From UHGV virus genome UHGV-0105104: a stretch of DNA of 46,666 bases. One strand, 5' to 3'. This DNA is from a virus. Each line of letters opens with the position of its first letter. Position 1 is the stretch's first letter. Shown one piece after another: positions 4,414-43,463 of this stretch. The notes below the pieces were generated by a model. That model saw nothing but the letters and a program-made list of their open reading frames with translations. It did not search any database and was not told the origin of the DNA. Made by a program: the position numbers and the translations under genes.

Positions 4414-4471
4414 TACAATCTACAACACCTAGTATTGACTAATTGACGTAGATTAGTCAAGATGATTTCAC
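4414..4471 (+). promoter_or_regulatory. promoter/operator of moron island A: extended -10 TGnTACAAT (4414-4419) and TTGACGTAGATT core (4443-4454), flanked by inverted repeats
   Basis: caATCTACaa (4416-4425) is the reverse complement of GTAGATTa (4449-4456). TTGACTAAT/ATTAGTCAA is a perfect 9 bp inverted repeat around TTGACGTAGA. Sits 20-70 nt upstream of the ATG at 4484. Confidence 0.45.
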
Positions 4472-4483
4472 AGGGGAGCGACA

Positions 4484-4684
4484 ATGGCGAGACAACGCAA
4501 AGAACCACTGGAAGTACTGACTGATATTATCGCTAAGCGCCAGCCGTTAAGCCTGCGAGATGTCAGATATTACGCGCACTGCTATGTAGCAATGCGTGAA
4601 TGGAGTGCTGAAGAAATGTATGCGTTTGTGCGTGAGCACTTCAGCGTGGATGAGAAAAACAAAGTTACGTTGAGGGTGGAGTGA
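4484..4684 (+). CDS. hypothetical protein
   Basis: 66 aa, first gene of island A; stop overlaps the next start (GTGATG). Confidence 0.4.
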   Translation: MARQRKEPLEVLTDIIAKRQPLSLRDVRYYAHCYVAMREWSAEEMYAFVREHFSVDEKNKVTLRVE

Positions 4685-5154
4685 TGAAATACAAATACCT
4701 GAAAGGAAGTGCTGATTATTTTAATGGTCATGAAGATGCCGTTCTTGCTGTGAAGTCAGCAACCAGTGGCAAAATCCACTACCTCAGCGCGGATTATGCA
4801 GGGCGAGATAAGGATATCGAAAAGGCTGGCGATATTGTTATCGCCCATCGTGAGCCAGTAACTGATGATGACTTGAATTGGCGCATCATCTCAACAGAAG
4901 CCCTCATCACCGAGCGCGGCAGCCGTTATGGCAAATTCAAAGACGGCGCAGAAATCATGCGATCTCTGAAACGAGTTATGCATGACGCGGAGGGCTGGAA
5001 TAACCTGACGGCGAGCCAGAAGGAAGCGCTCGACATGATTCAGCATAAAATTGGTCGCATCCTGAATGGCGACCCGACATACGACGATAGCTGGAAAGAC
5101 ATCGCTGGCTATGCAACATTAATTGTTAATGAACTGAATGGGGAGGTGAAGTGA
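4681..5154 (+). CDS. MazG-like nucleoside triphosphate pyrophosphohydrolase domain protein
   Basis: C-terminal half ERGSRYGKFKDGAEIMRSL...EALDMIQHKIGRIL...DSWKDIAGYATLIV matches the phage MazG-like all-alpha NTP-PPase pattern (RYG, E-x-x-D, D-SW-DIAGYA) as I recall it. Confidence 0.4.
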   Translation: MMKYKYLKGSADYFNGHEDAVLAVKSATSGKIHYLSADYAGRDKDIEKAGDIVIAHREPVTDDDLNWRIISTEALITERGSRYGKFKDGAEIMRSLKRVMHDAEGWNNLTASQKEALDMIQHKIGRILNGDPTYDDSWKDIAGYATLIVNELNGEVK

Positions 5155-5366
5155 TGCCAATACAAGACCCCGTGCCACGCATTGAAATCGACATGGTGGA
5201 GTTACACGAACCTGCCCGGCGCGATTATCATGTCCCGAGGCTTGGAGAACCAGCAGCCTACATCATCACCAGCAACCGTGGTCGCCGCTATCTGGCGTTT
5301 GCTGGTAGTGTTGAGCATCAGAATGCGACCATGTTTGGGTACAAAATGGAGGCGCTTTATGCGTGA
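5151..5366 (+). CDS. hypothetical protein
   Basis: 71 aa, ATGA overlap with the upstream gene; followed by a terminator. Confidence 0.35.
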   Translation: MMPIQDPVPRIEIDMVELHEPARRDYHVPRLGEPAAYIITSNRGRRYLAFAGSVEHQNATMFGYKMEALYA

Positions 5367-5390
5367 GATTGACCTTGGCATTTTCTAAAA

Positions 5391-5417
5391 CAAAGCCCCT
5401 TACGGGGCTTTTTTATT
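5391..5417. terminator. bidirectional rho-independent terminator
   Basis: aaagcccc-ttac-ggggcttt stem-loop followed by TTTTTATT; sits between convergent island A and the lysis cassette. Confidence 0.6.
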
Positions 5418-5658
5418 GGAAGTTATCGCGATACCAATCCTGCCAGTCGTAAATCGTCATCTTTCTTTTTGTGGCGCACTCCGTGTTCTGGTTCTCCATA
5501 ACGATACTTTCGTCGCTATTTTTTGGCGCCACTTTCGATAATTCGCACACCTGACCTAGCATCTCTGCTGACGGAGGCGTCGGCGTCGAGTGATTGTTGG
5601 CGCAACCGCTGATAGTTGTCATCAAAAACACACACATTACGATTCGGGTCGGAGACAT
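5413..5658 (-). CDS. Rz1-like outer-membrane spanin lipoprotein (o-spanin), overlapping Rz in another frame
   Basis: Lipobox TISGC after a short hydrophobic leader. Pro/Thr-rich mature region. Starts inside the Rz gene and extends past its stop. Confidence 0.5.
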   Translation of the reverse strand: MSPTRIVMCVFLMTTISGCANNHSTPTPPSAEMLGQVCELSKVAPKNSDESIVMENQNTECATKRKMTIYDWQDWYRDNFQ

Positions 5659-5896
5659 ATTTCACCACGTCGCGGTAAATGGTTTTGTATTTGGTTTCAG
5701 TCACAACGCGCACCTGCTGAGATTGCTCCGTGGACTTAGCCTGCTTGCTTTGCACCTCCTGCCTGCGCTTTTCTGCGTCACGATTAACTTTTTCGCTGTG
5801 CGCATACCATCCCTTCATGTATCCAGCGCCATAACCAGATGCAGCAATGATTACCGCGACGCCTATGGCGATTAGAATTAACTTAATTCTGGTCAT
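5516..5896 (-). CDS. Rz-like inner-membrane spanin (i-spanin)
   Basis: N-terminal TM helix (LILIAIGVAVIIAASGYGAGY) followed by a charged coiled-coil periplasmic domain. Confidence 0.55.
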   Translation of the reverse strand: MTRIKLILIAIGVAVIIAASGYGAGYMKGWYAHSEKVNRDAEKRRQEVQSKQAKSTEQSQQVRVVTETKYKTIYRDVVKYVSDPNRNVCVFDDNYQRLRQQSLDADASVSRDARSGVRIIESGAKK

Positions 5897-6116
5897 TTTT
5901 CAGCGCCTTAATCTCTTTCTTCATGCTGTGCATTTTTCCAAACAGCGAGGCAAGAAGGATGCTGTAGCTGATAGCCTTGACCGCAATGGGCGGAATGGCG
6001 GACTTGAGGTCTTCAGGCATGAAAGCCCATACGTGAACCATGGCGTCAGGCCAGAGCTGAATCAGCGAGCAGAATGACGCCCAAATGCCGATAAGCCAGT
6101 TACTGAGGCGCTTCAT
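5883..6116 (-). CDS. putative holin (two TM segments)
   Basis: 77 aa with two hydrophobic helices and a charged C-terminus; ATGA overlap with the upstream HNH gene; adjacent to endolysin and spanins. Confidence 0.4.
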   Translation of the reverse strand: MKRLSNWLIGIWASFCSLIQLWPDAMVHVWAFMPEDLKSAIPPIAVKAISYSILLASLFGKMHSMKKEIKALKNDQN

Positions 6117-6610
6117 GACGCACCCCCATGATTTGCAAATTCATTGTGCGCCTGACTCCTAAATTCATGCACGGCGGCAGCGGCGTCATTTATGTCATCA
6201 AATAACCCGATGTGCACCTGCCTGCCAAACGCGCCGCAGTAAGCCCTCCATTTTTTACACCTTTTGTTCCATGACACCCCTTTGAATCCAGAGCTATTGC
6301 TTTTGTTCATCCTGCTGTTTTGATTGTTTTGGCAAGATGACGCACTCCTTAAGTTAGTGATTCTATTGTCGTCTTTGTTTCCATTGATGTGGTCTATTTG
6401 ATTATCCGGCCACTTCCCATAAACATAGAGCCACGCCAGTCTGTGAGCATAATAGCGCCTACCAAAAACCCGTATGACTCTGTATCCGGATGGCATCAAT
6501 GAACCAGCTATATCACCAGATTTTTTGTTTGATATGTTTTTGTTGAAGTAAAAAAATCCATCAGATTCATTGTATGTGAACCTATCTCTTAAAGCGCCTT
6601 GTGTAATCAT
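6113..6610 (-). CDS. HNH / AP2-domain homing endonuclease (HNH_3 family)
   Basis: YRVIRVFGRRYYAHRLAWLYVYGKWP...IDHINGNKDDNRITNLR plus AP2-like GVSWNKRCKKWRAYC...HIGLF. Start set to MITQGAL with a GAGGTG Shine-Dalgarno (the ORF track's longer start overlaps the lysozyme gene). Confidence 0.7.
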   Translation of the reverse strand: MITQGALRDRFTYNESDGFFYFNKNISNKKSGDIAGSLMPSGYRVIRVFGRRYYAHRLAWLYVYGKWPDNQIDHINGNKDDNRITNLRSASSCQNNQNSRMNKSNSSGFKGVSWNKRCKKWRAYCGAFGRQVHIGLFDDINDAAAAVHEFRSQAHNEFANHGGAS

Positions 6611-6689
6611 CACCACCTCTTCATATGCGTTGGGAGTTGAGCGCGCGCCATGCCTCAGCGCGTCTCGTTGCCATGCCTTACGCATAAAG

Positions 6690-7124
6690 CTAAGACATGT
6701 ATACCTCACGTTCGACTGCGCGGCGCTTGGTCAGTCCGTTCATGACTTTGCCATTAGCGCGATTCCATACCCGGAACTGGTCAGCAGCGCAGGTATAGCA
6801 GCGGGCGTTATGCTTTTTCAGCAGAGTTGATTTGCCAAAGTTACCAAGGCCGATGTTATAGGCCAGCGATACCATTGCATCAAACTGGCCCTGAGTTGTT
6901 GGGGCAGTGATGAGTGACGAGACGCCGCTTTCAAATTTCGCTACGTCGTCACGCAGCATCTTTTCCGCTTGCTGTGCAGTGATAACCATGCCTGGCTTAA
7001 CGCCTTTGGTTGTACCGTAACCGATAGTCCACGGCGCTCCGCCAGTGGCTGGGTCTGGATATGCCTTCGAGCTGTAACCCTCGAATTGTTTAATTAAATC
7101 AATGCCGCGTTGCGATAGTTTCAT
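6690..7124 (-). CDS. endolysin, GH24 phage lysozyme family
   Basis: MKLSQRGIDLIKQFEGYSSKAYPDPATGGAPWTIGYGTT is a canonical T4/lambda-R-type lysozyme N-terminus with the catalytic Glu in the FEG motif. Confidence 0.8.
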   Translation of the reverse strand: MKLSQRGIDLIKQFEGYSSKAYPDPATGGAPWTIGYGTTKGVKPGMVITAQQAEKMLRDDVAKFESGVSSLITAPTTQGQFDAMVSLAYNIGLGNFGKSTLLKKHNARCYTCAADQFRVWNRANGKVMNGLTKRRAVEREVYMS

Positions 7125-7165
7125 AGCCCCTCCACTTTAATTCTGATTATTTTATCATAATCCTA

Positions 7166-7200
7166 TTGACGTAGATTGAATCGTAGGCGATGATGTAGTT
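7166..7200 (+). promoter_or_regulatory. promoter of moron island B with TTGACGTAGATTGA motif and three GTAG elements at 12 bp spacing
   Basis: ttgacGTAGattgaatcGTAGgcgatgatGTAGtt, 23 nt upstream of the ATG at 7223. Confidence 0.45.
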
Positions 7201-7222
7201 ACACAAACACAGGGGATTCAAG

Positions 7223-7513
7223 ATGAAAAAATTTATCGCAGTGGCAGTATTCGCAATGGCTTCATTTGGCGCATCGGCTGGCGAAGTATGCAACAAAGTT
7301 GGCGATGTTGGATTCGCCGCTGCCGATGCTCGTGATTCCGGCGTACCTCAGAGCATAGCAATGGCGGTAGCACAAAGTCCTGAGTACGGCGTGGATGCCA
7401 ACAACGTGCTTGGTGCAACAGTGAAGATGGCCTACTCAATGCCGAACAAGACACCAAAAGAAATCAAGGCAATCACAATTGCGCTTTGCGTATCAAGCAT
7501 GGGTGACTTGTAA
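7223..7513 (+). CDS. secreted/periplasmic protein of unknown function (signal peptide)
   Basis: MKKFIAVAVFAMASFGASA|GEV...: cleavable Sec signal peptide. Confidence 0.45.
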   Translation: MKKFIAVAVFAMASFGASAGEVCNKVGDVGFAAADARDSGVPQSIAMAVAQSPEYGVDANNVLGATVKMAYSMPNKTPKEIKAITIALCVSSMGDL

Positions 7514-7644
7514 TGTGCCCGCGCCTGATGTTTAAGGCCCGCAACCGCTACGTAAAGCTGGTGATGCGCGGCATGGATGAGCATGCAGCATGGCTGAATG
7601 TGATGGGTGAACTGAAAAGCATTTATAACGGAGAGAAGAAATGA
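7513..7644 (+). CDS. small hypothetical protein (43 aa), translationally coupled
   Basis: TAATG overlap with the upstream stop and ATGA overlap with the downstream start; MCPRLMFKARNRYVKLVMRGMDEHAAWLNVMGELKSIYNGEKK. Confidence 0.3.
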   Translation: MCPRLMFKARNRYVKLVMRGMDEHAAWLNVMGELKSIYNGEKK

Positions 7645-8573
7645 AACTGATTGATATTTTGGTTGAAGAACTTCCGAAGCATGGCGGTTGGCCGGATGGC
7701 GCTGTATTTGTTGCACAAGAAGAAGGTGGGGAGCTATGGAGTTTTACTTCTAAGCCGCAAAAAGATTGTGATGATGAATGGATGGATGAATCGCATCATG
7801 GTTATCACACGAAAGTTGGAAAACTGCGTGAAGCAAGTGACCATGATATATCGACTATCACCCGCGAACAGTACGAAGCCGCGCTGGCTGCCAGTAAGCG
7901 CTGCGATCATAAGTGGGTTCCAAGTGAGGGAAGAACACAGTCTGGTTATCTTTGCAGTAAATGTGGTAACTATGACGGCCCTGGTTATGACTGGATTGAT
8001 TGGCCTGGTGGAGAATGCCCTGTGCCGCGCGGCACGCTGGTTGATGTGAAGTATCTTTGTGGCGATGTTAACCGCCATATTAAAGCTGGCGAGCCTGACT
8101 CTTCTGGAAGCATCGATACAGCTTTCGCTGTCAGATGGAGTAAACTTGGCGCGGAATACGACATCATCGCCTACCGCCTGCACCAGCCGCAGGAAGCAGA
8201 GCAGGCCAAAGCTGATGACGAAGCCGACCTGAATGAGTGCATCGGCCAGGATGCTGCGCCGGTTTGGAATGGCGAAGGCTTGCCGCCGGTTGGGGTTGAA
8301 TGTGAATGCTCATGGTGTGGTGATGAATGGCAGCCGTGCAAAATACTCTTCGCAAGCAATCAAATTGTTGTCGTCAAGCTGAAAGAAAGCGGCATGGAGG
8401 ATGCCTACAACATTGGCGACGTAACATTCCGCCCCATCCGCTCAGAAGCCGATCGGAAGCGCGATAAGGCGGTGAAAACAATTATGTTAACAGGATGGCG
8501 CCAGAATTTCGCTGAGGAAATTTGCAACCTCGTTGCTGCCGGAAAGGTGCCTGGCATGAAGCTGGAGGATTGA
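7641..8573 (+). CDS. Cys-rich hypothetical protein (310 aa)
   Basis: Contains several CxxC pairs (CSKCG, CECSWCG); no recognisable catalytic motif. Confidence 0.4.
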   Translation: MKLIDILVEELPKHGGWPDGAVFVAQEEGGELWSFTSKPQKDCDDEWMDESHHGYHTKVGKLREASDHDISTITREQYEAALAASKRCDHKWVPSEGRTQSGYLCSKCGNYDGPGYDWIDWPGGECPVPRGTLVDVKYLCGDVNRHIKAGEPDSSGSIDTAFAVRWSKLGAEYDIIAYRLHQPQEAEQAKADDEADLNECIGQDAAPVWNGEGLPPVGVECECSWCGDEWQPCKILFASNQIVVVKLKESGMEDAYNIGDVTFRPIRSEADRKRDKAVKTIMLTGWRQNFAEEICNLVAAGKVPGMKLED

Positions 8574-8574
8574 T

Positions 8575-8769
8575 ATGTACAGAATGAGCAAGAAAAGCCT
8601 CGCCGGAAGAATTGTCTTGGCACCGCTGTTTTTAATTATTTTGGTTATTGAGTCGACACTAAATAAAGCTGATGACTGGAGCTACCATGTGAGACGAATA
8701 AGGATTAAGATGAATGACTTTGTTGATAAGAAGTTTCCATTGGCAAACAACAAGAAAACTAAGATTTAA
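8575..8769 (+). CDS. small membrane protein
   Basis: 64 aa with one hydrophobic helix (IVLAPLFLIILVI); last gene of island B. Confidence 0.3.
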   Translation: MYRMSKKSLAGRIVLAPLFLIILVIESTLNKADDWSYHVRRIRIKMNDFVDKKFPLANNKKTKI

Positions 8770-8782
8770 CAAAAGGACGCCA

Positions 8783-9727
8783 TCAGGTGGCTTTCTTGTG
8801 TGTATCCTGCCATGCTTCGCGCTGCTTATCGAGCCTTTCCTGCGTCTTCTCAAGTATCACAGGCCTGCCATCCATTATCAGCGCCGGAGTCTGCGCGCAG
8901 TGACAATTCCTGCGGTTTGCTCCTTCGCTGTAGAACTCATCAATCTCTTCCGGGGTGTAATACTTTCCATGACGTGCGGCATGAGTGACGCGGGTGGTTT
9001 TCATAAGCGCCGACTGCCAGAGCATGATGGTATCCATATCCAGCGTGACCTGTGCCTCCTTAACTTCGCGCCTGTTAGCCTCGCGCAGGGTGTTGGTGAT
9101 TTCAGTCTGAGCAATGGAGCGCGCATAGCTCCTTGATACGTCCATGCGGTTAACGATGTTTTGCTCAACCACTCCAGGAGCGTCGCCATTTGCAATGCCA
9201 GCAGTGATGACCTCTGCCACCTGTTGCCGCGTGTAATCAGAGAGGCCACCCCAGTCATTATACGTGCGCGTATACGCAAGTTGAAGCCTGTCGAGATACG
9301 GCTGAGAGTACAGGATTTCAGCAAGCGGCCTGCTGTCTTTGTATGCCGACGACAGGTCGCCAAGGTCTGAGTTTGCCTTCTGCGTACCGGCATACATGGC
9401 ATCGCTGACATAGGACGAGGCCCATAGCCTTCCGTGCGTGAAATCGTCACCTTCCAGCAGCTGACCATCAAGAATGCGCTGAAGTTCATCAAAGAATGTC
9501 GATGCGCGGTATGCGGAGAAATCATAATAATAATTTCTAGCCTCAGCATTGCCGGTCGCCACAGGAATCGTGCGGAACAACTCGGCAACCTGCGATTTTA
9601 GCGTCACATATCTGGCGTCAACATCGCGCACCATCTTATTGACGCGACCCACTGCGCCGAGTGGGTCTGTCAGGCTCATGCTTAATTTTGGCTGCGGAAG
9701 CCGGGCATTAATTTTGAGGAGGCGCAT
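8783..9727 (-). CDS. head morphogenesis protein, phage Mu gpF / SPP1 gp7 family
   Basis: Sits after the portal gene. C-terminal ...[13 protein letters not shown]...NCHCAQTP matches the MuF-family Cys/His motif. Start uncertain (9727 or 9679). Confidence 0.6.
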
Positions 9728-11156
9728 CGGTCTGGCCCTGCTGTTGGTCTTGCTGCGATTGCTGGTCTTGCTGTTGACCTTCCTGCAATCCCTCAGGAAG
9801 CTGCTCCTCCAGAGGCTCCATGCCAACAATGCCGCGCATCTCATCGGCGGTCATCAGGGCCATCTGGCCTGCGTCGAATACGGATTTATTTGCAGTGGCA
9901 AGTTTAACCAGCAGCTCGGCCTTATTCAGCTCGGAAGGTGCAAGCAGGTCATCCCATTTGCAGTAATAGCCGCTCTCTGGCGCCTTATCCAGGATGCCAA
10001 AGGAAATCATCCGGTCAATGAATACCGAGATGATGTAATCCAGCCAGTCCTCGCGGCGCTGTTTGGCGCTCATGGCGTCGTCGGTCTTATCCTCATCTGA
10101 TGCGAGGCGGCCAGTCTGCTGACCAAACAGGATGGTGAATGGCTTCTTGATGGATGCTGCAAACTGGTTGGCCGCAATAGTCCAGGTTGGGCTTGGGTCT
10201 GCTGGCGTCACTGAGAGCACTTTGACATCAGCGCCCATCGTGAACATCGCCGCGTCAATCGCCTCGTTCAGGCGCGCCACATCCTCATTGAGCACATCTG
10301 CCAGTTCTTCCAGCGGAACACCCATTTGCTGTGCCAGAGACTGAGCGGAAACGCTGTCTTTATTATAATTAACGTTGAGCTGCCGACTGGCATTCTTCAG
10401 GAAGCCCTCGGCGCTTGAGCCGGTTACTTTCGCCATGTCGATGAGGTGGTTGTACCCAGCACGCAGAAGCGGAACGCCAGAGTAAATGGAGCCATCCATC
10501 GCACCCTCAGCAAATACGATAATGCGATCGGGATGAATGCTCAGGTAGCGCGTTGGTTTGCCGTCGCTGTTGCAGGCGCCGACTACCGACTCCTGATATT
10601 CGTACATCTTCGGCTGACCATAGTCTTCGCTGGCTTCGTCATTTTCCCATTCACTGACGCGGAGCTGCTCTTCCCACGCCGGAATGTAGCGGACAATGGC
10701 AGCATCCTTGATGCGTTTTGTTTTCGTGGCGTCTACCGGCTCATTCCACTGCTTTCCATCACGGATTTGCAGGATGAGTCCGGAATAGCGGTTGATGAGG
10801 TTGCGGCGGTCTGCATCCTTGATGAATGGCGCAGCGCGCTTAAACAGCTTATTGGCTGCTTTCTCCCACGGGGTGCTTGCTTTATCATCAGCGCCTTCCT
10901 GAAGGATTTGCGGCGGAGTCTGCCAGCACTTATCGAGGACACGGTTGACGCCAGCGGTTGCCGGTGCATAGCGCTCATAGGCATAGCGGAACATCTCGGC
11001 GGTGATTTCTTCAGGGTAGCCGCATTCGAGCCACAGCCTGTCGTGTTTGTGGTCGATATTGGCGCCGCCAAACTCCCGACGCTGCCGCTCGATGAGCCTG
11101 TTATTGTTCGCCACTCGCTGCTGAATATAGGCGTTTACCGCCTCTAACTTTGACAT
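9708..11156 (-). CDS. portal protein
   Basis: 482 aa, between TerL and the MuF-like gene, with an acidic/Gln-rich C-terminal tail; call is positional plus size. Confidence 0.55.
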
Positions 11157-11211
11157 TTCGTCACCATAAAAAATCCCATCGCATGGATGGGATTATAGCA
11201 TGGCGGGTTGG

Positions 11212-11490
11212 TTATTGTGGTGAGACACAAAGGCCAGCGGAATCTATCCACCTACTCACTATATCTTGCGCAAACTTCATTGCCTCTGACTCGCTTGGAT
11301 GTTTACTGTTTGTAAATTTATCCTTCATCCCGGGCATATGTACTTCGCATCGATATTTTTCACTGGCATCTTTTGGTGATGAATTATAAGTAACTGTTGC
11401 AACATGAAACTTACCAAGAAAAATACGCATTGAATGAGGTCCATATCTTTGCTCTCGCTTTCTCCACTCCATCACTTCACCTCTACGCAT
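11212..11490 (-). CDS. hypothetical protein
   Basis: 92 aa ORF upstream of portal. Confidence 0.3.
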   Translation of the reverse strand: MRRGEVMEWRKREQRYGPHSMRIFLGKFHVATVTYNSSPKDASEKYRCEVHMPGMKDKFTNSKHPSESEAMKFAQDIVSRWIDSAGLCVSPQ

Positions 11491-11653
11491 TGCAAATTGT
11501 TAATATTTGGACTTGCATCACGCCACGTCCGTCTTTCCTCAGCTATTTTCATCGCCGTAATGGCCGCCCCGCACTGCTCCATACTTTGCATCGGCACCAC
11601 CTGCATATTGGACGTGTTGCTTGTGATTACGAATATCAGGAAGAAATACGACA

Positions 11654-11875
11654 TCACTTCACCTCATCATCAACCAGCGACCGGAACAATGCGGGATATG
11701 ACTTCGCGCCGAGTTTATAGTCAACATTCTGAATGTAACGTGCCGCATCATCCAGCTTATCGGAAAGATAATAAAGCGACTTTCTTGCGCCAATAAGCAT
11801 GGCAGCGAATATCAGCATCACAATCAGGTGCGGGTTGATGATGCAGAACAGGGTTGTTTTGACGGCTTTCATCAC
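11654..11875 (-). CDS. hypothetical membrane protein
   Basis: 73 aa with a hydrophobic N-terminal half. Confidence 0.3.
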   Translation of the reverse strand: MMKAVKTTLFCIINPHLIVMLIFAAMLIGARKSLYYLSDKLDDAARYIQNVDYKLGAKSYPALFRSLVDDEVK

Positions 11876-12060: not shown

Positions 12061-12221
12061 CACTCAATCTCCTCGCCATCAACCCAGCGTTGCAGGACTT
12101 CGATAAGCTGTGCGGCCTGGTGTTTGTCAATTTGAATCCACTCCCCAAACTGCCTTAAATCTGCGTTTCTATCCGCCTTAACTGTTATTGCGTTGCATTC
12201 ATGCGCTTCTTCAATAATCAT
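12060..12221 (-). CDS. small hypothetical protein (53 aa)
   Basis: Not in the ORF track; MIIEEAHECNAITVKADRNADLRQFGEWIQIDKHQAAQLIEVLQRWVDGEEIE; ATGA overlap with the upstream gene. Confidence 0.3.
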   Translation of the reverse strand: MIIEEAHECNAITVKADRNADLRQFGEWIQIDKHQAAQLIEVLQRWVDGEEIE

Positions 12222-12457
12222 AAATCACCACCCTCATCGTTATTTAACTCAACATTCCGAAAGAAATCATTAATCGTCTTCAGGCCACTATAACCACGGC
12301 GCCGCTGTAACTCACACAGCACTTCATCATACATACGCAGCAGGATAGCCTCATCAACATCGTACCTTTCGCACAGCGCCTCATCAGACACACCAGCTCT
12401 TGCGAGTGAGTATATTTTTTCCTTCTGCTCCCACGAAAAAGACGAGTATGCCTTCAT
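12218..12457 (-). CDS. hypothetical protein
   Basis: 79 aa; first gene after the divergent promoter region at 12458-12546. Confidence 0.35.
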   Translation of the reverse strand: MKAYSSFSWEQKEKIYSLARAGVSDEALCERYDVDEAILLRMYDEVLCELQRRRGYSGLKTINDFFRNVELNNDEGGDL

Positions 12458-12490
12458 GATGCCCCCGGTGATGTAGTTATGTCAATGCGC

Positions 12491-12525
12491 CTTGACGTAG
12501 ATTCTAGCATGGCGTAGATTAAAAT
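12491..12525 (+). promoter_or_regulatory. promoter of island C with tandem GACGTAGATT / GGCGTAGATT elements
   Basis: ttGACGTAGATTctagcatgGCGTAGATTaaaatg, 22-56 nt upstream of the ATG at 12547. Confidence 0.4.
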
Positions 12526-12546
12526 GAAACCTCTCGGAGAAATCTT

Positions 12547-12837
12547 ATGAAATGTGTCATTTTCGAGCTTGATGGCGTGCTGCGCGATGCGGAAGGAAAT
12601 GCTATTGCTGGTAACGTTGCGCTGGCTAAGTCGCTGTACTCTGCCGGTCACGACATCCTAATCATGAGGGCAAAGCATGCGTATGAGTGGCTGCATGCTA
12701 ACGATGTTTTCTATGATGACATCATGGCATCCCATCAGCAGATTGATGCAGAAAGGGTGGCGATTGCGGTCGTGTCTAATGACGTGATTTATGCCGCCAT
12801 GCGCAACGCGGGGATTCATTGCTGGCTTTATAAATAG
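12547..12837 (+). CDS. hypothetical protein with HAD-like N-terminal motif (FELDGVL)
   Basis: 96 aa; motif resembles HAD motif I but with Glu in place of the nucleophilic Asp, so no enzymatic call; followed by a hairpin at 12837-12852. Confidence 0.35.
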   Translation: MKCVIFELDGVLRDAEGNAIAGNVALAKSLYSAGHDILIMRAKHAYEWLHANDVFYDDIMASHQQIDAERVAIAVVSNDVIYAAMRNAGIHCWLYK

Positions 12838-15476: not shown

Positions 15477-15920
15477 TTACTGTTGCTGCTCCAGTAATTT
15501 CTCCAGTCGCTCAAGTCGAGCGGCGAGTTCGGTTAACTCTTTCACGTCAAGACCAACCTTAATCATAGACACAACCTGAGACGCAACATCAATGGGAAGC
15601 TCACCAAGCGAGACTGACTGAATGACATCTTCAATCTGCTGCACTGGTGTTGCACCCTTCTGATATTTGAACTCAACAGGAGGGGCCATTGTCTTCTGCA
15701 TTGGGCTAATGCGAAGAAATATTTCTTTCAGCATTTGCACGCCCTGAGTCGGGTTTTCCTCAGTCATCTTGATTGACGTCCTGATGAATGCGTCAAGGAA
15801 CTCCTCCTCACCAAGCCCACAACGCTTTAATGCTTCAATAAGCCTGTTTCTGTAGCTTAAACCTCTTCCTGCTGGCTGGTATTCAGCAGAAAACTTCATA
15901 ATCGGATTTGGATTTGCCAT
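15477..15920 (-). CDS. terS: terminase small subunit (putative)
   Basis: 147 aa ORF directly upstream of TerL with a C-terminal coiled coil; positional call. Confidence 0.45.
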   Translation of the reverse strand: MANPNPIMKFSAEYQPAGRGLSYRNRLIEALKRCGLGEEEFLDAFIRTSIKMTEENPTQGVQMLKEIFLRISPMQKTMAPPVEFKYQKGATPVQQIEDVIQSVSLGELPIDVASQVVSMIKVGLDVKELTELAARLERLEKLLEQQQ

Positions 15921-15969
15921 GTCGTTTTCGTCTTTTCGTAAACCGAATACAAGTATATTAACACATGGC

Positions 15970-15997
15970 GTAGATAAAAAGAACCCGCCGAAGCGGG
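15970..15997 (-). terminator. rho-independent terminator (minus strand) upstream of the TerS promoter
   Basis: Minus strand reads cccgc-ttcg-gcggg then TTCTTTTTAT; the GGCGTAGATAAAAAG element is adjacent. Confidence 0.5.
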
Positions 15998-17672: not shown

Positions 17673-17701
17673 ACTATACGATGGCTCTCAATCTACGTCA
17701 A
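17673..17701 (-). promoter_or_regulatory. leftward (late-operon) promoter TTGACG-N17-TATAGT with TAGATTGAG core
   Basis: Reverse complement of 17688-17701 is TTGACGTAGATTGA; -10 TATAGT is the reverse complement of 17673-17678; spacer 17 nt. Confidence 0.5.
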
Positions 17702-18008: not shown

Positions 18009-18058
18009 TGGTTAAAAATTGACCAATATACATACTGAGTCGATGCCGGTGGTTTATG

Positions 18059-18104
18059 TAGATTAAATGGTTTGCGCGAGTGCAGATTGTTCAGTACAAT
18101 CTGT
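18059..18104 (+). promoter_or_regulatory. early promoter TTGCGC-N17-TACAAT with a perfect palindrome CAGATTG-N7-CAATCTG over the -10, plus an upstream GTAGATTAAATGG element
   Basis: -35 at 18072-18077, -10 at 18095-18100. Palindrome at 18083-18103. AGGAGG at 18115-18120. ATG at 18127. Confidence 0.5.
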
Positions 18105-18126: not shown

Positions 18127-18405
18127 ATGCACGCAGAAGGCTCAAAGATGAAGTTCGTTTATGACCACCTTGCCGCCATGAAGAGCGGGGAGGTGATATC
18201 CGTCCATTTCGAAAATGATTTATCAGATTCAGTAGTCAGGGGTTACAAAGAGGAGTGCAGCTTATCTGATATCCCTCCAGAATACAGGATGAACAGAAAC
18301 ATGTTCCGCTCCTATGCTGCAAAGATTGCCATTGCGCATAACATGAACATCAAGACCAAAAATGGCCCGATGGGTAAATTCCTGTACATCTGGAAGGTTT
18401 GCTGA
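18127..18405 (+). CDS. hypothetical early protein
   Basis: 92 aa, strong AGGAGG Shine-Dalgarno. Confidence 0.4.
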   Translation: MHAEGSKMKFVYDHLAAMKSGEVISVHFENDLSDSVVRGYKEECSLSDIPPEYRMNRNMFRSYAAKIAIAHNMNIKTKNGPMGKFLYIWKVC

Positions 18406-20054
18406 TGAATACTTACGAAATTATCGCCATGAAAAAATCCGTCGGGAAAGCGGATTCATCAATAGACCCGCTCGATGAGGCTGACATTCCTGAGTTCAGG
18501 GAAAAATACAAGATTCCACCCGGTTCACTTGGGGAGTTCATAGAGGAGATAGAGAAAAATTTCGAGCGCCGTGATGATGGAGAAAAATATCGACTTGTTG
18601 GCGCGCTTGGCCTTGCTCAGATAATGGCTGGTAGATTTATTATTGGCCCTACTGGAAGTAAGTGCTCTACTGGGATTTTCCTCGTGGCGAGGTCTGGAGC
18701 TGGCAAGCAGGCGCCAGTTAATTTTATAAAGCAATATGCTGAAGCCCTGATGATAAGCGACCGCCTTTGCACCACTACTGCTACATCATTAAAGCAGATA
18801 CAGACCAGCATGATTGAAGGTGATGGCTCTCTGCTTTACGTCGTAAACGATGACAAGCAGCATATTGACTCATGGAATGACCCTAGAAGCGCATATCTTG
18901 GCGGAACTGCGCCGTGGTATCGCAGTTTGACTGATGAAGGTGGGTGGGTTCCAACCAGGACAATAATCAGGGATATTGAGGAGAATATGGCTAAAGCCAT
19001 GAACCCCAAGACGATAGTTAGTGTTGCTATGGCGGAAGGCTGGATTGTTCCGCGTATTGGCGGTGCGCAGGATGGGATGATTGACTATAAAAGATTGTCT
19101 CAGATGGATCACAGTGTGGGCAGGAACCTGAAAAAAGTGATGGCTGAGCATGAATTATGCACTCGTGATGGAGGTATTGAGAACGCAAGATTTATTCCTC
19201 TCATCACTGTAACGCCAGTTCAGGGTATTGATGCGGTCAGGTCATGGCAGAAGGATGGTGGCATGGGCAGGACGTTGTTCATCCTTGGTCATGGCGATGA
19301 CGAGGAAATGCCATTACTAAAAAGAGAGCAGCCAGCAGGTGAGGTAAACAGGAGAATAGTAAATGAATGGAAGCAAAGAATCCTCCGCTCAATAACCAGC
19401 GTTGAATTTGAAAGTGAAAAGGTAAACGACAGGCGTTATGAGCTTACGTGCCACCTTGAGAAATGTCTCGGAAATGTAGATGGTGTAATTGGCGATGTTG
19501 TCCCGCGCGCCGGGCAGATGATCGTAGACCTTGCCTCGATATGCGCATTTGCAGACCTTTCGAGTCGCAATGGAATGACGCCAGTTTTGTGCGACAGGCA
19601 TCTTGAATGGGCTTATATGACAGTGATAAACCACCTTCGCTCGCTTCGTGATTATGTAGAAGGTGACGTTGCATTCAGTGGCCTTGAAGAGGATGAGTGG
19701 GAAAACATCATTGCCAAAATTAGAAAGGTGATGGCCGGGAAAAAATTCATTAATAAGCCTTACACTTCCGTACTGAAAAGCGGATTGTGCCGTGGTCGAA
19801 TTGAGACAATCATCAAGGCGGCAAACTCAAATCATCTACAGGTAACGCCTGACAGGTTCATTTCTGAGGTTCTGGTTTCCATTACAGAAAACAGACACTC
19901 ACCTATCGACATTGAGGCTTCTGCTATTAATGGAGGGTCAAAAATCGTCTTCAGGGACGATGGGTCATGGTCTGGACTGCGAATGAATGCCTCGGTGAGA
20001 AACATACTTTCAGCCGCCGTTAACAGGATGAAATTTATGAGAGGTCTGAAATGA
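18399..20054 (+). CDS. large early protein, possible replication initiator / origin-binding protein
   Basis: 551 aa next to the iteron array; degenerate P-loop-like GPTGSK...ARSGAGKQ; no confident family assignment. Confidence 0.3.
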   Translation: MLMNTYEIIAMKKSVGKADSSIDPLDEADIPEFREKYKIPPGSLGEFIEEIEKNFERRDDGEKYRLVGALGLAQIMAGRFIIGPTGSKCSTGIFLVARSGAGKQAPVNFIKQYAEALMISDRLCTTTATSLKQIQTSMIEGDGSLLYVVNDDKQHIDSWNDPRSAYLGGTAPWYRSLTDEGGWVPTRTIIRDIEENMAKAMNPKTIVSVAMAEGWIVPRIGGAQDGMIDYKRLSQMDHSVGRNLKKVMAEHELCTRDGGIENARFIPLITVTPVQGIDAVRSWQKDGGMGRTLFILGHGDDEEMPLLKREQPAGEVNRRIVNEWKQRILRSITSVEFESEKVNDRRYELTCHLEKCLGNVDGVIGDVVPRAGQMIVDLASICAFADLSSRNGMTPVLCDRHLEWAYMTVINHLRSLRDYVEGDVAFSGLEEDEWENIIAKIRKVMAGKKFINKPYTSVLKSGLCRGRIETIIKAANSNHLQVTPDRFISEVLVSITENRHSPIDIEASAINGGSKIVFRDDGSWSGLRMNASVRNILSAAVNRMKFMRGLK

Positions 20055-21325: not shown

Positions 21326-21355
21326 GTTGACGATGATGTAGAATCATTGTAATTT
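21326..21355 (+). promoter_or_regulatory. promoter TTGACG-N17-GTAATT for the HNH/helicase block, with GATGATGTAGAAT element
   Basis: ttgacgatgatgtagaatcattgtaattt. Confidence 0.4.
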
Positions 21356-24395: not shown

Positions 24396-24821
24396 GTGAA
24401 GCAGCTTGATAGCGGTATATGGGTATTTGATAGCGGTTATCGCGGAGAATGCCCAAAAGAGGAGACTGACCAGATGGGTTACGGCACATGGATGCAAAGC
24501 CAATTCCCTGATGTGCTCTGGTTTCACGTCCCGAATGAAACAGGAACATCAAGCCGCGTCCAGTTTGTATTGAAGCGCCAGAAGATGGGGGTTAAGACTG
24601 GAATAGGTGACAATGTGATAATGACGCCGGGAGTGAAGCACAGCTGCGGAATGATTGAGGCAAAGCGCCGAGATAAAAGCAAAAGCAGAGTAAGTAAAGA
24701 GCAATCGTCTGTGTTAACTGAGATGTGCAGGCTTGGTCATTATGCTGCCATCGCTTACGGCCTTGATGAACTAAAAAAAGCCACGCTTTTCTATTTTGGC
24801 TTGCTGAATGATGTAGATTGA
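24396..24821 (+). CDS. VRR-NUC domain nuclease
   Basis: GTG start with AAGGAGA Shine-Dalgarno; WFHVPNE...GIGDNVIMTPG...IEAKRRDKSK pattern. Confidence 0.55.
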   Translation: MKQLDSGIWVFDSGYRGECPKEETDQMGYGTWMQSQFPDVLWFHVPNETGTSSRVQFVLKRQKMGVKTGIGDNVIMTPGVKHSCGMIEAKRRDKSKSRVSKEQSSVLTEMCRLGHYAAIAYGLDELKKATLFYFGLLNDVD

Positions 24822-38530: not shown

Positions 38531-38585
38531 GTCTAAATCCTGTTTTCATAATGACGTAATTATACCATTGACAGGAGACGCAAGA

Positions 38586-38620
38586 CTGACGTAGATTGAA
38601 AGCATAAGGTGATTGGGGGT
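38586..38620 (+). promoter_or_regulatory. promoter of the HNH island inside the tail module (cTGACGTAGATTGA motif)
   Basis: Motif at 38586-38599. Confidence 0.4.
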
Positions 38621-38748: not shown

Positions 38749-39234
38749 ATGAAAATAACTGATTGGTCAGATATTTTTTATTATTGTGATGGGGCTATTT
38801 ACTGGAAGATAAGAACCTCAAACAGAGTGAAAATCGAAAGCGAGGTGAAGGCGGTAGGAGGCAATGGATATAAGATTGTTGGAATCTATGGCGTCAAGTA
38901 TCTTGTTCATCGCATCATCTGGGAAATGCATAATGGGAAAATTCCTGACGGAATGCAGATTGATCATATAGACCACAATAAAACAAACAATAAGATAGAT
39001 AACCTCAGGATTGTCACTCCAAAAGAGAATAATCACAACATGAAGTTCAGGGTGACAAACAAATCAGGTGTTACTGGTGTTTCATGGGATAAACAACATA
39101 AAAAATGTGCCTCAAACATAAAAGTTGATGGCGTAAAGATTCATCTTGGATTGTTTTCTGACTTAAATATGGCCGCTGAAGCAAGGAGAAAGGCGGAGGT
39201 TAAGTATGATTTTCATGAGAACCATGGTAAATGA
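38749..39234 (+). CDS. HNH / AP2 homing endonuclease
   Basis: ...IDHIDHNKTNNKIDNLRIVTPKENNHN plus AP2-like GVSWDKQHKKC...HLGLF. Confidence 0.7.
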   Translation: MKITDWSDIFYYCDGAIYWKIRTSNRVKIESEVKAVGGNGYKIVGIYGVKYLVHRIIWEMHNGKIPDGMQIDHIDHNKTNNKIDNLRIVTPKENNHNMKFRVTNKSGVTGVSWDKQHKKCASNIKVDGVKIHLGLFSDLNMAAEARRKAEVKYDFHENHGK

Positions 39235-40627: not shown

Positions 40628-40671
40628 GTTTAGAATCCTCTCTGTTTAGCTAAACAATCGCATTATATCAT

Positions 40672-40700
40672 GTTGACAGGTTTTGATTGGTGGTGTAGAT
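40672..40700 (+). promoter_or_regulatory. promoter TTGACA-N17-TAGATT with GTGTAGATTAAATGG element
   Basis: Seen in the sequence; leads into a ~300 nt leader before the 41004 ORF. Confidence 0.35.
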
Positions 40701-41003
40701 TAAATGGCAGATAGTTTTCGTAAGCGACTTTGCGGGTTTTTAGAAACTGACCACAAAGATAAATGCAAACGAAGAAATGTATCTGGCAGTAGCCTAACGG
40801 CTAAGCACCAGCAAGGTCTTCCGACTCCTTGTCAATGAATTCGGCGCACTGTCCCGGTGTGATTAATAATGGGCACACAACAGGTAAGAGCATTGTCAGG
40901 TAGCTTCAGGGGGCACGCCCGCACTGGTGACGACTTATGCGCAAAAGTACGTGTGGTAAGTCCTGTAGTGCTCTTTCCGTTGTGGTAATGCGGCTATGCG
41001 CAC

Positions 41004-41315
41004 GTGGCAAGGTATAAATATGCTCTTTTTGTGGGTATGCCTGCTGGATTTACCGACCAGCAACCTGGAGGCGCCAGGGCCACAACAATAATTCGAATCC
41101 TGTCGCGGGAACCATCTTCGGGGAGCGCAATTATACAAATCCAAAAAATCCACGATGATTACTGGCGCATAGCTGACAAAAATAACAGCAGGATTGCTGG
41201 TATATCAAAGGTCGGGAAGTGGTATGTTGTCGCAAATGCTAATGGGCGATATGATGCCCGATTCGAATATCTTGGCGATGCCATTGATTATTTATTATGT
41301 AGTAATGACTACTAA
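41004..41315 (+). CDS. hypothetical protein
   Basis: 103 aa, followed by a terminator. Confidence 0.3.
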   Translation: MARYKYALFVGMPAGFTDQQPGGARATTIIRILSREPSSGSAIIQIQKIHDDYWRIADKNNSRIAGISKVGKWYVVANANGRYDARFEYLGDAIDYLLCSNDY

Positions 41316-41345: not shown

Positions 41346-41722
41346 CCAAAAACAACCCTCAGCAACAACTCATAAACAGGCCTTTTCTCTGTCGTAAGCG
41401 TAGGGCGACCAAGCGGAGCCTGTAGCTGAATCATGCCAATACAACTATCAACGGGATGCTCTTTGATATATGAGATGACATCAAGCGCTTTTGCTTTTGT
41501 CTCCTCGATATTGTACTGACCCTGCTGACCGACAACATAGAGTGAAAAATAATAATCATTGCCGAGGTCTTTGCTTACATTCGTACCGCCATTGGATTGC
41601 AGCACCATAAACCGGTCGGTGCCAACTTCGGTATCGTTCCAGAACTCAAGCTGAGAAGTCCACCCGTCATAAAGACCGGCATCGCTAAGGTACTGTTCGA
41701 CAAGTTCAAGCATATCTCTCAT
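41339..41722 (-). CDS. tail terminator / tail completion-like protein
   Basis: Positional. Confidence 0.35.
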   Translation of the reverse strand: MRDMLELVEQYLSDAGLYDGWTSQLEFWNDTEVGTDRFMVLQSNGGTNVSKDLGNDYYFSLYVVGQQGQYNIEETKAKALDVISYIKEHPVDSCIGMIQLQAPLGRPTLTTEKRPVYELLLRVVFGE

Positions 41723-42135
41723 TTTAGCGTCATCTCTTTTTTAATTACCTGATCGACAAGCTCGCGTGTGTTTTCGCCAGCCTTGAGAAGGAATTTAGGC
41801 TCGCCGCTCTTATCCCATACATTTCCCTTCCCTTTGAGCCGTCCTGTGCGTGGCGTGTTCGTACCCAGCAGCTTACCTGGTGCATTGTGGACATACAGAG
41901 CATAATTAGCTGCATACCCAATCTTGCCAGTTATGCGAGTGCCATTAACCTCAACGGTGTCATACTGGCTGTTTATCAGAACTGATGTGGCTACTGGCGT
42001 CATGGAAGCCGATTCAGTCCTGATGATATAGTTGGCGGCTTTTATTGCTGATACCGCCTTTTCACCAGTGATCTCACCGACTATCTGCTGAGTGCGCTTA
42101 ATCGCCTGCTGGATACCTCGCATTTTGGCGGCCAT
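41719..42135 (-). CDS. neck/tail-component protein (HK97 gp10-like)
   Basis: Positional. Confidence 0.35.
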   Translation of the reverse strand: MAAKMRGIQQAIKRTQQIVGEITGEKAVSAIKAANYIIRTESASMTPVATSVLINSQYDTVEVNGTRITGKIGYAANYALYVHNAPGKLLGTNTPRTGRLKGKGNVWDKSGEPKFLLKAGENTRELVDQVIKKEMTLK

Positions 42136-42138
42136 ACA

Positions 42139-42483
42139 TTACCCCGTCACCAGCGCAAAATCAGGCAGGTCATTGCGGTCCAGCGTATTGCCGTAATTCA
42201 CGACGCTTCTAATCCGGTCAGCTCCGGCGGCCAGCGGGTCAGCACTTGTGACGGTACCAAGCATGATGAAGTCGCCAACAGACGCATCCTGATATTCCGT
42301 CCAGAATGTGTTTTTCTGTGCAATCTCATTGCCAGCTGTGCCGGTGGTCAGATTCTTATCGAAGCCATAATCACACATGATGGACTCTGGCGCGGCGAAT
42401 GTTGGCTTGCCATACTTATCCTTGCCAGTAAGCCGCCAGATTGTGCATGGCTGCGTATAGCTCCATCTCGCTATTGCTGACAT
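42139..42483 (-). CDS. head-tail adaptor / head closure protein
   Basis: Positional. Confidence 0.35.
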   Translation of the reverse strand: MSAIARWSYTQPCTIWRLTGKDKYGKPTFAAPESIMCDYGFDKNLTTGTAGNEIAQKNTFWTEYQDASVGDFIMLGTVTSADPLAAGADRIRSVVNYGNTLDRNDLPDFALVTG

Positions 42484-42601
42484 GGTTCGGCCTTAAGAGT
42501 ATAAACCCAGCGCGGAACTGGAAGGCGCAGCAATACCAGAATAACCAACAACGGCATGCACCATTTACGGATTGCGATATTTACAGTTAATGTTGATGTT
42601 T

Positions 42602-42994
42602 TCATCTGCACTTGCTCCCGGTGACAACCCGAAACCACGGCTTTGCACTTCCATCAGGCTCTTCCACAAGGTCGCCTGTGCAATCTGCCGTATCGAGTAG
42701 CTTCATCTGATTGTAAAGGGCCATCCACGGCTTGCTTCCATAGCCAAATGATTGCGACGCACCAGATGGCGCCCGGTGGCTGGTGATGTATCTCCCGGCT
42801 GTATTTGAGGCGATTAGGATAGATGCCCATAGCAGAATTGCATCCTGCCTGCATGTGTCTTCGGGGTAATTAAGCTCAAGGCACTCTGTGATGCTCGTTA
42901 CCAGACACAGGATTCCCGTTGCGTCTGCCGTGGTGATAGTTACGCCTCTTGACGCCATGGCGGCGACAAGTTCACTTGCTGTCGGTGCTGCCAT
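42602..42994 (-). CDS. head-tail connector protein
   Basis: Start at MAAPTASELV... Confidence 0.35.
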   Translation of the reverse strand: MAAPTASELVAAMASRGVTITTADATGILCLVTSITECLELNYPEDTCRQDAILLWASILIASNTAGRYITSHRAPSGASQSFGYGSKPWMALYNQMKLLDTADCTGDLVEEPDGSAKPWFRVVTGSKCR

Positions 42995-43262
42995 TCTTTT
43001 TGCTCTCCCGAATCTTCCACCACATCTCAAAAAGGTTTTTTGCCACCAGTGACAGCGCGCCAAGGATAGAGGCCACCGCCGCCCACTCGGTAATCGAATG
43101 GGGGATCATTGAGGCAATGTATGATTGTGCGACTGGCGTCTGCTCTGCCACCTTCAGGCCAAGTCCCGTGCCGATGGATGTATAACCGGCTTTGTCGATT
43201 ACCTGGCCGACAGTGCCACTAATTATCTGGTTTGCGGCGTGCTGAAGCGCGTCTCTCATCAA
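42972..43262 (-). CDS. hypothetical protein with C-terminal TM segment
   Basis: 96 aa. Confidence 0.3.
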   Translation of the reverse strand: MMRDALQHAANQIISGTVGQVIDKAGYTSIGTGLGLKVAEQTPVAQSYIASMIPHSITEWAAVASILGALSLVAKNLFEMWWKIRESKKNGSTDSK

Positions 43263-43420
43263 TTATTCTCCGAATGATGAACTTCCAGCATCTGTACACC
43301 TGAACCAGCGAAAACGCCATGACGATAACGCCTATTGCTATATCCAATTTCGCCGCCTTACGTTTTTCAGGACGGAACAGCGCTGGGTGAGTGTTGTTGG
43401 TTTAATTTTATCATAAAGTG

Positions 43421-43463
43421 TTGACGTAGATTGAGGGTGTCGCTATAGTGATGACGTAGAAAC
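43421..43463 (+). promoter_or_regulatory. promoter of island H: TTGACG-N17-TATAGT with TTGACGTAGATTGAG and a second GATGACGTAGAAAC element
   Basis: Same -35/spacer/-10 as the late promoter at 17673-17701. Confidence 0.5.

Follow-up and report, generated by a model that had tools for sequence, protein, structure and literature searches.

The window analysed here is the whole of UHGV virus genome UHGV-0105104 (46,666 nucleotides), the complete, circularly permuted genome of a virulent Klebsiella siphovirus with about 94% identity to phage BUCT541 by megablast and whole-length comparison. Within the promoters of nearly all of its non-structural gene blocks lies an asymmetric 13-base motif, TGRYGTAGATTSA, which is shared with Salmonella and E. 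coli relatives and is probably the binding site of a regulator. The relatives are pYD38-A (Roufvirus), MK54, the Salmonella phages Vi II-E1 (Macdonaldcampvirus; ViII-E1 below), LPSTLL (Segzyvirus) and Seszw_1 (Skatevirus), and E. coli phage HC6. A codon-usage gene map places the virion and lysis genes throughout on the minus strand, broken up by plus-strand “islands” of small and accessory genes whose content varies strongly among relatives. The replication block (18127-28222) occupies the plus strand and a run of small genes (17641 leftward to 15998) the minus strand, and there are eight divergent intergenic gaps. Mosaic breakpoints adjoin the motif: sequence and gene content change between relatives downstream of 38599 and upstream of 17701 and 7166.

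The motif is strongly over-represented. Its 14-mer form, TTGACGTAGATTGA, has seven matches at up to two mismatches against 0.27 expected, a count reached in none of 100 shuffles, and the genome’s most repeated 11-mer is TGACGTAGATT, with six exact copies. An earlier note, made from the sequence alone, had listed 14-mer sites at 4443, 7166, 12492 (given there as 12491), 17688 (minus strand), 38586 and 43421; all of them exist, and 24808 is additional. The degenerate form TGAYGTAGATT occurs seven times against about 0.04 expected, nearly always in non-coding DNA and each time aimed at the downstream gene. TGRYGTAGA occurs 12 times against 1.4, with 11 copies within the non-coding 9% of the genome. 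Ten of the 15 copies of GTAGATT are non-coding (6.9% of the genome by the gene map used for that count), with a start codon 26-62 nt ahead of each except the copy at 40695, for which the gene calls gave no credible start. The related GCGTAGAT(T)AAAA(T)G elements are also present, at 12512, 15968, 18057 and 40693, within 8 nt of the positions first given. The enrichment proposed by the earlier note thus holds for the 14-mer and fails for the half-site [CT]AGATTG on which its family was built: the latter has 22 copies against 16.6 expected, a count reached by 11 of 100 shuffles. CAGATTG occurs 15 times in the window against 10, and neither it nor TAGATTG is enriched across six genomes.

Comparative analysis extends these results beyond the window. 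Six genomes carry five to eight copies of TGAYGTAGATT each against about 0.05 expected, and eight genomes from at least four lineages carry 11-16 copies of TGRYGTAGA against about 1.5. Across these eight, 93 of the 106 TGRYGTAGA copies fall in the non-coding 7-15% of each genome, and for 82 of the 93 a start codon on the same strand follows within 130 nt. When six orthologous gaps were aligned over six genomes, the motif was kept while the flanks and sometimes the downstream genes differed; the motif is under purifying selection. A logo built from 49 non-coding sites of the three most divergent genomes reads TGRYGTAGAWT(S)A; it carries little information beyond these positions and is not dyad-symmetric. 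An outgroup, a lambdoid Cronobacter phage with 43% identity in the portal protein, has two TGRYGTAGA copies, both intragenic. In an IMG/VR scan for the exact 14-mer, relatives were mixed with chance matches among the matches listed. Text searches of the literature for the motif string returned nothing relevant; phage promoter and operator motifs are a familiar kind of element, and this one therefore appears undescribed in the searchable literature.

The copies take several positions relative to the hexamers recognized by sigma-70, which were located by consensus scans, so that the registers given here are predictions. In the -35 register, the motif supplies TTGACG with a -10 exactly 17 bp on, at 7166 (GATGAT), 12492 (TAGATT), 17701 on the minus strand (TATAGT) and 43421 (TATAGT). 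The minus-strand copy TGACGTAGATTGA at 17688..17700 forms TTGACG-N17-TATAGT (17701-17673), the best sigma-70-like match of a consensus scan in 1-20000, and is predicted to drive the small genes from 17641 to 15998. It had been taken for the late promoter; the run that it drives stops at a terminator before the terminase gene. The same 13-mer at 7167..7179 (plus) lies in TTGACG-N17-GATGAT (7166-7194), ahead of the block starting at 7223, and is conserved in six genomes with diverged flanks. A weak second copy, TGATGTAGTTACA (7191..7203, plus), overlaps the predicted -10 and +1 of this lysis-facing promoter; it has the direct orientation in the Roufvirus-like genomes, whereas LPSTLL, HC6 and Seszw_1 have the second copy inverted. 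At 12493..12505 (plus), TGACGTAGATTCT lies in TTGACG-N17-TAGATT (12492-12520), upstream of gene 12547..12837. Its neighbours on the same strand are a weak copy 24 bp upstream (TGATGTAGTTATG, 12469..12481) and a further copy 17 bp downstream (TGGCGTAGATTAA, 12510..12522), which provides the -10 TAGATT of the same promoter; copies paired at 17 bp also occur in ViII-E1, LPSTLL, HC6 and Seszw_1.

The fourth promoter of this register shares TTGACG-N17-TATAGT with 17701-17673, as had been noticed before. It spans 43421-43449, contains TGACGTAGATTGA at 43422..43434 (plus), precedes the block starting at 43489 and is conserved in six genomes. A second copy, TGACGTAGAAACA, begins at 43452 on the plus strand, about +1 of this promoter and 30 bp after the first; its TAGAAA is without the final T expected in a -10 hexamer. 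This copy opens a 23-nt block, TGACGTAGAAACAACAATAAATG (43452..43474, plus), that is identical in all six aligned genomes, which belong to three genera. The block stands at the start of the 43489 leader, where an additional role as RNA is conceivable. HC6 and Seszw_1 carry the 13-mer TGACGTAGAAACA at their helicase promoter as well.

In the -10 register, the motif supplies TAGATT with TTGACA or TTGACG 17-18 bp upstream, at 38587, 40691 and 12510. The copy TGACGTAGATTGA at 38587..38599 (plus) belongs to TTGACA-N18-TAGATT (38568-38597), before the block starting at 38628; TTGACA and motif are conserved together in six genomes though the downstream genes differ. At 40691..40703 (plus), TGGTGTAGATTAA belongs to TTGACA-N17-TAGATT (40673-40701) and has GTAGATTAAATGG in common with a degenerate copy, TTATGTAGATTAA (18054..18066, plus), which lies upstream of the replication-module promoter and is found only in the window and BUCT541.

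The copies at 4415 (minus), 4444 and 24809 are probably in the -10 register as well. The first, TGTTGTAGATTGT (4415..4427), has TAGATT as the predicted -10 of the leftward operon running from 4388 to 2579, which contains the Lar-like and double winged-helix genes and whose start codon lies 28 nt downstream; orthologous copies occur in HC6, LPSTLL, ViII-E1 and Seszw_1. Facing it, TGACGTAGATTAG (4444..4456, plus) lies upstream of gene 4484..4684 in an ambiguous register, either as a -10 or in the spacer of TTGACT-N17-CAAGAT; with only 27 nt to the ATG, its TTGACG is not usable as a -35. This copy is surrounded by a 26-bp palindrome, TTGACTAA-N10-TTAGTCAA (4435-4460), with perfect 8-bp arms. The arms are retained in ViII-E1 and the TTGAC/GTCAA ends in HC6, and each arm also supplies a -35-like TTGACT to one of two divergent promoters that interdigitate. 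The third copy, TGATGTAGATTGA (24809..24821, plus), coincides with the 3' end of gene 24396..24821; in relatives, it is a tandem of 10-bp period located 24-29 nt before the next gene.

Two copies occupy other registers. The +1 copy is that at 43452, and the spacer copy is the variant TGATGTAGAATCA (21334..21346, plus), inside TTGACG-N17-TAATTT (21327-21355) between the primase and HNH/helicase genes. The latter is identical in ViII-E1 and LPSTLL, and the promoters at this place in Seszw_1 and HC6 also hold a copy in the spacer, with different flanks. A last element, GCGTAGATAAAAAG (15968..15981, plus), overlaps the T-tract of a minus-strand intrinsic terminator (15999-15982), is retained in some relatives only and is a doubtful member of the family.

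Sigma-70-type hexamers spaced by 16-18 bp, with A2 and T6 in the -10, are thus present at 17701-17673, 7166-7194, 12492-12520, 43421-43449, 38568-38597, 40673-40701 and 21327-21355, and each of the 11-16 dispersed, asymmetric copies per genome overlaps a -35, spacer, -10 or +1. The distance from motif to start codon is 23-62 nt in the same direction, with room for a leader and a ribosome-binding site, and is bimodal (23-39 against 41-62 nt) because the registers differ. Second copies stand at varied spacings of 10, 17, 24 and 30-31 bp, and this variability, together with their direct or inverted orientation, suits an operator and not a polymerase element. Contacts of sigma-70 account for TTGACG and TAGATT where these act as hexamers but leave unexplained the conserved TAGATTGA just downstream of the -35 in -35-register copies, the TGRYG at -17 to -13 in the -10 register, the spacer copy and the +1 copy. 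The known TGn of extended -10 promoters sits elsewhere than TGRYG; a standard extended -10 was accordingly rejected for the motif, whose TG falls at -17/-16 and not at -15/-14. Another rejected reading took the 14-mer as two overlapping tandem promoters, with TAGATT as one -10 and the following TTGACG as the next -35. In the -35-register copies, nothing upstream of TAGATT could serve as a -35 (at most three of six bases agree), and in the -10-register copies nothing downstream of TTGAYG could serve as a -10.

A second promoter class serves the remaining leftward genes. The earlier note had placed its motif family at every promoter, coordinating early, late and moron transcription. This does not hold, since only two of the eight leftward units carry a copy (4388, which includes the winged-helix gene, and 17641), and an extended -10, TGnTAWAAT, takes its place in the operons for lysis, portal, tail, major-tail and head-tail genes. 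In these structural and lysis operons, TGn stands directly upstream of a TAnAAT-like hexamer, and no -35 is needed; the distance to the operon start used to define the class is 24-43 nt. The member of the leftward lysis operon is TGATAAAAT (7149..7157, minus), back-to-back with the motif at 7167; others, also on the minus strand, lie at 12501-12509, 38559-38567, 40662-40670, 43405-43413, 11192-11200 and 2427-2435. All 11 matches to TGNTA[ATG]AAT are on the minus strand, where about three per strand are expected, and six of them fall in gaps before minus-strand genes. Members of the class lie 24-145 nt ahead of the operons for head, lysis, portal, tail, major-tail and head-tail genes, and its strand bias is common to seven genomes.

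The two classes stand back-to-back or overlap at 7149/7166, 43405/43421, 38559/38568 and 40662/40673. Judging from standard footprint sizes, polymerase at one promoter of such a pair would exclude polymerase from the other. The distance from motif to leftward -10 is 16-17 bp at two pairs and 27-28 bp at two others, a pattern that rests on four cases; the idea that the motif is an activator site for the leftward promoters was rejected because these distances are not uniform.

A different element had been grouped with the motif. The perfect palindrome CAGATTG-N7-CAATCTG (18083..18103) exists as described and overlaps the -10 of TTGCGC-N17-TACAAT, ahead of 18127..18405 and a 549-aa replication protein. 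It is found, together with the whole replication module and its iteron-rich gap, only in the window and BUCT541, and the other relatives differ there. Perfect 7-bp inverted repeats number 55 in the window against 19-36 in shuffles. Its membership in the family therefore falls, given a half-site that is not enriched and a module missing from four other motif-bearing genomes; we judge the palindrome to be a separate, module-specific element, statistically not unusual, which may be a local operator. In the neighbouring gap at 17700-18050, a 485-bp non-coding region holds GTTCCC and GGGAAC(TC) repeats on both sides of an AT-rich core; this repeat-packed gap is probably a replication origin with iterons, just upstream of 18127..20054. 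The annotation of BUCT541 places a coding sequence (its 2679..3014) in the origin-like gap, which the codon model rejects.

Which protein could read the motif? Family scans of about 30 small proteins gave a single DNA-binding fold, that of the 156-aa product of 3202..3672 (minus), which bears the PHROG label “MarR family”. It is the only recognizable DNA-binding protein conserved in all motif-bearing genomes (36-98% identity), and among the candidates of the earlier note it gains in standing. The AlphaFold model (pLDDT 74) and the alignment indicate two tandem winged-helix domains followed by a C-terminal helix. In helix 3 of the second domain, K102, R104 and R106 do not vary over a range of identities from 31% to 98%. 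Foldseek gave generic winged-helix matches only, the best being MarR-type and PadR-type with TM-scores of about 0.4; Pfam gave only sub-threshold HTH_24 and HTH_IclR on two separate stretches; and a profile search of solved structures matched each half separately, with E of about 0.01. Membership in the MarR family was rejected, as no MarR model scored above threshold and the protein has two tandem winged helices, not one with dimerization helices. If the model is right, a two-headed monomer of this kind could read an asymmetric site.

Genetic evidence bears on this protein. A genome-reduction study of phage seszw gave a viable, large-plaque mutant, seszw_280L (PMC9825161). Compared with Seszw_1, this 36,975-bp genome lacks the winged-helix gene (Seszw_1 1701-2113) and the DUF7540 gene and keeps 13 of 13 motif copies. 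The product of 3202..3672 cannot therefore be a required activator; a dispensable repressor is possible. The mutant also carries a T-to-C change, from TTGATT to TTGACT, just upstream of the motif of the helicase promoter (about 25770 of seszw_280L). The second candidate, a 79-aa protein with an acidic tail (12218..12457, minus), has a four-helix, helix-turn-helix-like predicted model (pLDDT 80). It is 51-55% conserved in distant relatives, is retained in seszw_280L and had no significant match in fold or family searches. Two other proteins were set aside. The third candidate of the earlier note, 18127..18405, is missing in four of five other genomes with the motif that were compared and so cannot read the motif, and the ParB-like gene is truncated in the window to its C-terminal 86 aa.

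Because the motif occurs in four registers, it is better explained as an operator, bound by a clade-specific protein that is most likely a repressor or switch, than as a plain promoter consensus; we give this reading a confidence that stands about midway between belief and doubt. Since sigma-70 contacts do not suffice, the most economical account is a single reader that recognizes the complete 13-mer, and to this extent the proposal of one shared trans-acting regulator stands, while its dimeric nature does not, the logo being without dyad symmetry. On the operator reading, TGRYGTAGAWT(S)A would be an asymmetric cis-regulatory site inside the sigma-70-type promoters of non-structural units, namely the accessory islands, the origin-adjacent small-gene operon, the replication genes and the Lar/winged-helix operon. 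Its -35-like TTGAYG runs directly into a -10-like TAGATT, which allows overlap with either of the two core elements. A protein specific to the phage clade would bind it and block host RNA polymerase, so that the motif promoters would be shut off jointly; at 7149/7167 and 43405/43422, the extended -10 promoters that point the other way, to the lysis and head-tail genes, would be freed as well. Several motif promoters are near consensus (TTGACG-N17-TATAGT; TTGACA-N17-TAGATT) and would need no activator. This, with the overlap of different core elements, makes steric repression more plausible than activation. What the analysis shows is the motif, with its enrichment, conservation and predicted registers, and the existence of two promoter classes; we infer the protein binding, its repressive effect and the identity of the protein.

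Several points weigh against the operator reading. The seszw_280L mutant is viable and forms large plaques with every motif copy in place and the double winged-helix gene gone, so that laboratory growth does not require the action of 3202..3672 if this gene encodes the reader. The 79-aa candidate had no significant fold or family match. Literature searches found no binding, transcription-start or expression data for this phage group. The good -35 and -10 hexamers embedded in the motif mean that polymerase explains part of the conservation and all of the orientation bias. Finally, the registers are themselves consensus predictions, and the 4444 site has three possible readings.

The most durable rival, possible though somewhat unlikely in our estimate, dispenses with a dedicated factor and takes the motif as a clade-specific extended promoter consensus for host sigma-70 polymerase alone. 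TTGACG would be the favoured -35 and TAGATT the favoured -10, their juxtaposition arising from descent or cassette duplication and selection for strength, possibly with tandem starts. Every strong copy does give a plausible -35 or -10 with correct spacing and a start codon 23-62 nt downstream, and the copies paired at 17 bp make complete promoters. The 7166 and 43421 promoters agree at about 27 of 35 bases, upstream sequence included, as paralogous cassettes would, and the winged-helix gene is dispensable in a relative. This explanation nevertheless needs a separate reason for each of the four registers in which the 13-mer is conserved, and TGRYG at -17 to -13 does not fall at the known TGn position. 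It also has to accommodate a +1 copy that is without the final T of a -10 and yet invariant in six genomes, and a promoter at which a direct second copy has been swapped for an inverted one.

An improbable alternative makes the motif the site of a host transcription factor or nucleoid protein that is conserved in Enterobacteriaceae and exploited by the phages. The motif is indeed common to phages of Klebsiella, Salmonella and Escherichia, and the phage proteins are only candidates as binders, the one clear DNA-binding candidate being deletable. Against this, the motif is not known to match the consensus of any enterobacterial factor, and a related temperate phage of an enterobacterial host is without the motif.

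Very little credence is left for the dimeric helix-turn-helix regulator of the earlier note, bound to inverted [CT]AGATTG half-sites at all promoters, for example CAATCTAC/GTAGATTA at 4416-4455; the statistics have already largely refuted it. Two inverted arrangements do exist, at 4416-4455 (copies at 4416-4423 and 4448-4455) and at 18083-18103, and the motif has one CAGATTGA variant in ViII-E1. The copies at 4415 and 4444, however, each precede their own divergent gene, the 18083 palindrome is limited to one mosaic module in a genome where 7-bp inverted repeats are frequent, and the half-site is not enriched. Nor are inverted half-sites found within each site, for the logo is asymmetric and the copies are mostly single or direct repeats. 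It is just as hard to credit that the promoter sequences are mainly short homology “linkers” for the swapping of islands by the phage Erf and exonuclease VIII, with transcription secondary: mosaic breakpoints right beside the motif and highly variable island content suit this idea, but it leaves the exact -35/-10 spacing, the orientation and the copies inside a single promoter unexplained, breakpoints would be expected beside any constrained element, and it could coexist with the operator explanation.

The operator reading can be carried further, to a single clade-specific protein that reads the 13-bp element in four registers and works as a genome-wide toggle in a virulent siphovirus; this extension we hold to be unlikely. 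About ten sigma-70 promoters of accessory, replication and regulator genes would be silenced, and at the back-to-back pairs polymerase would be handed over to the opposing extended -10 promoters, which serve the lysis and virion genes. If true, a lytic phage without its own polymerase would obtain its early-to-late switch from a single type of site.

Further features of the genome were recorded alongside the motif. The large terminase (12858-15377, minus) is 839 aa long because it carries an intein with Hint and LAGLIDADG homing endonuclease domains at residues about 87-440; pYD38-A has the intein too, and BUCT541, MK54 and ViII-E1 have a 474-aa form. Between 15477..15920 and the terminase gene, an int-alpA RNA motif was matched in Rfam at 15397-15460 on the minus strand (42.6 bits against a threshold of 35.8). 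There are at least five free-standing HNH_3 homing-endonuclease genes (6113-6610, 21387-22463, 24867-25493, 27219-27719 and 38749-39234), of which two have AP2 domains. The genes at 21387 and 24867 have common 5' ends and the upstream element TTGCAATG...TACAATAGAGG. Several HNH_3 genes stand directly behind motif-bearing promoters, and one in ViII-E1 has its own motif copy (ViII-E1 29827). In the island 43489-43993, the ParB-like gene of relatives has shrunk to the C-terminal 86-aa open reading frame (43733..43993), which follows an unrelated one of 71 aa. ARAGORN found no tRNA in the window; the cluster that BUCT541 (Ser, Arg, Met) and pYD38-A have at the place of window positions 41007-41092 is missing. 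The second most repeated 12-mer, GAGGTGAAGTGATG, combines a ribosome-binding site with overlapping stop and start codons and occurs four times, at 5143, 11470 (minus), 11652 (minus) and 26465.

Phages of about 46 kb of this kind (Roufvirus-like, Macdonaldcampvirus, Segzyvirus, Skatevirus and relatives) are common isolates that have been proposed for Klebsiella and Salmonella therapy, and one has been used in genome minimization. For this group, the literature yielded no transcript maps or account of expression timing. The motif and the extended -10 class together provide a testable transcription map of about 16 units, with two candidate regulators and an existing seszw deletion mutant. For engineering, the motif marks the natural promoters of dispensable islands, which are possible places for payload insertion; for annotation, it is a simple promoter-finding signature over about 200 related genomes.

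Among described systems, the closest parallels are the C1 operators of P1, the lambda OR and phi29 p4 switches and the class-specific promoter motifs of T4. T4 middle and early promoters, like the motif promoters, join a phage-specific sequence (the MotA box in the middle class) to a sigma-70 -10 and define one temporal class. The MotA box, however, replaces the -35 at a fixed position near -30, whereas the motif has a near-consensus -35 beside it and occurs in four registers, for which reasons a middle promoter of the MotA-box type was rejected; no MotA or AsiA homologues were detected in the approximately 30 small proteins scanned. The cII sites of lambda, TTGC-N6-TTGC, resemble the TTGA-N6-TTGA of the 14-mer as a 10-bp direct repeat straddling the -35. 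They differ in that the “N6” of the motif is its best-conserved part and that its -35 is strong rather than weak. The cII-like reading was rejected for lack of conservation in the second TTGA: C and G are about equally frequent at position 8 of the logo (15 and 16 of 49), and the repeat has disappeared from distant genomes. At the level of the candidate protein, the MarR family shares the winged helix-turn-helix fold with 3202..3672, but MarR proteins have one domain with dimerization helices, while the candidate has two winged-helix domains in one 156-aa chain.

The C1 operators of P1 are, like the motif, asymmetric, about 13-17 bp long and dispersed in many copies that overlap promoters, some of them paired. 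P1 is temperate and its C1 maintains lysogeny, whereas the phages described here are virulent and binding would have to be supposed; family scans of the small proteins gave no C1-like match, and no search aimed at C1 was made. The lambda OR region (PR/PRM) and phi29 p4 (A2c/A2b against A3) offer a parallel for the back-to-back pairs, with divergent promoters a few base pairs apart and one bound protein that silences one direction and favours the other. In lambda and phi29, dimers or multimers bind to sites that are dyad-symmetric or bipartite, whereas the site here is asymmetric, lies at a non-uniform distance from the leftward -10 and would act on the leftward promoters only by presumption. 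The counterparts in this genome of the lambda and phi29 switches would be 7149-7157 against 7166-7194 and 43405-43413 against 43421-43449.

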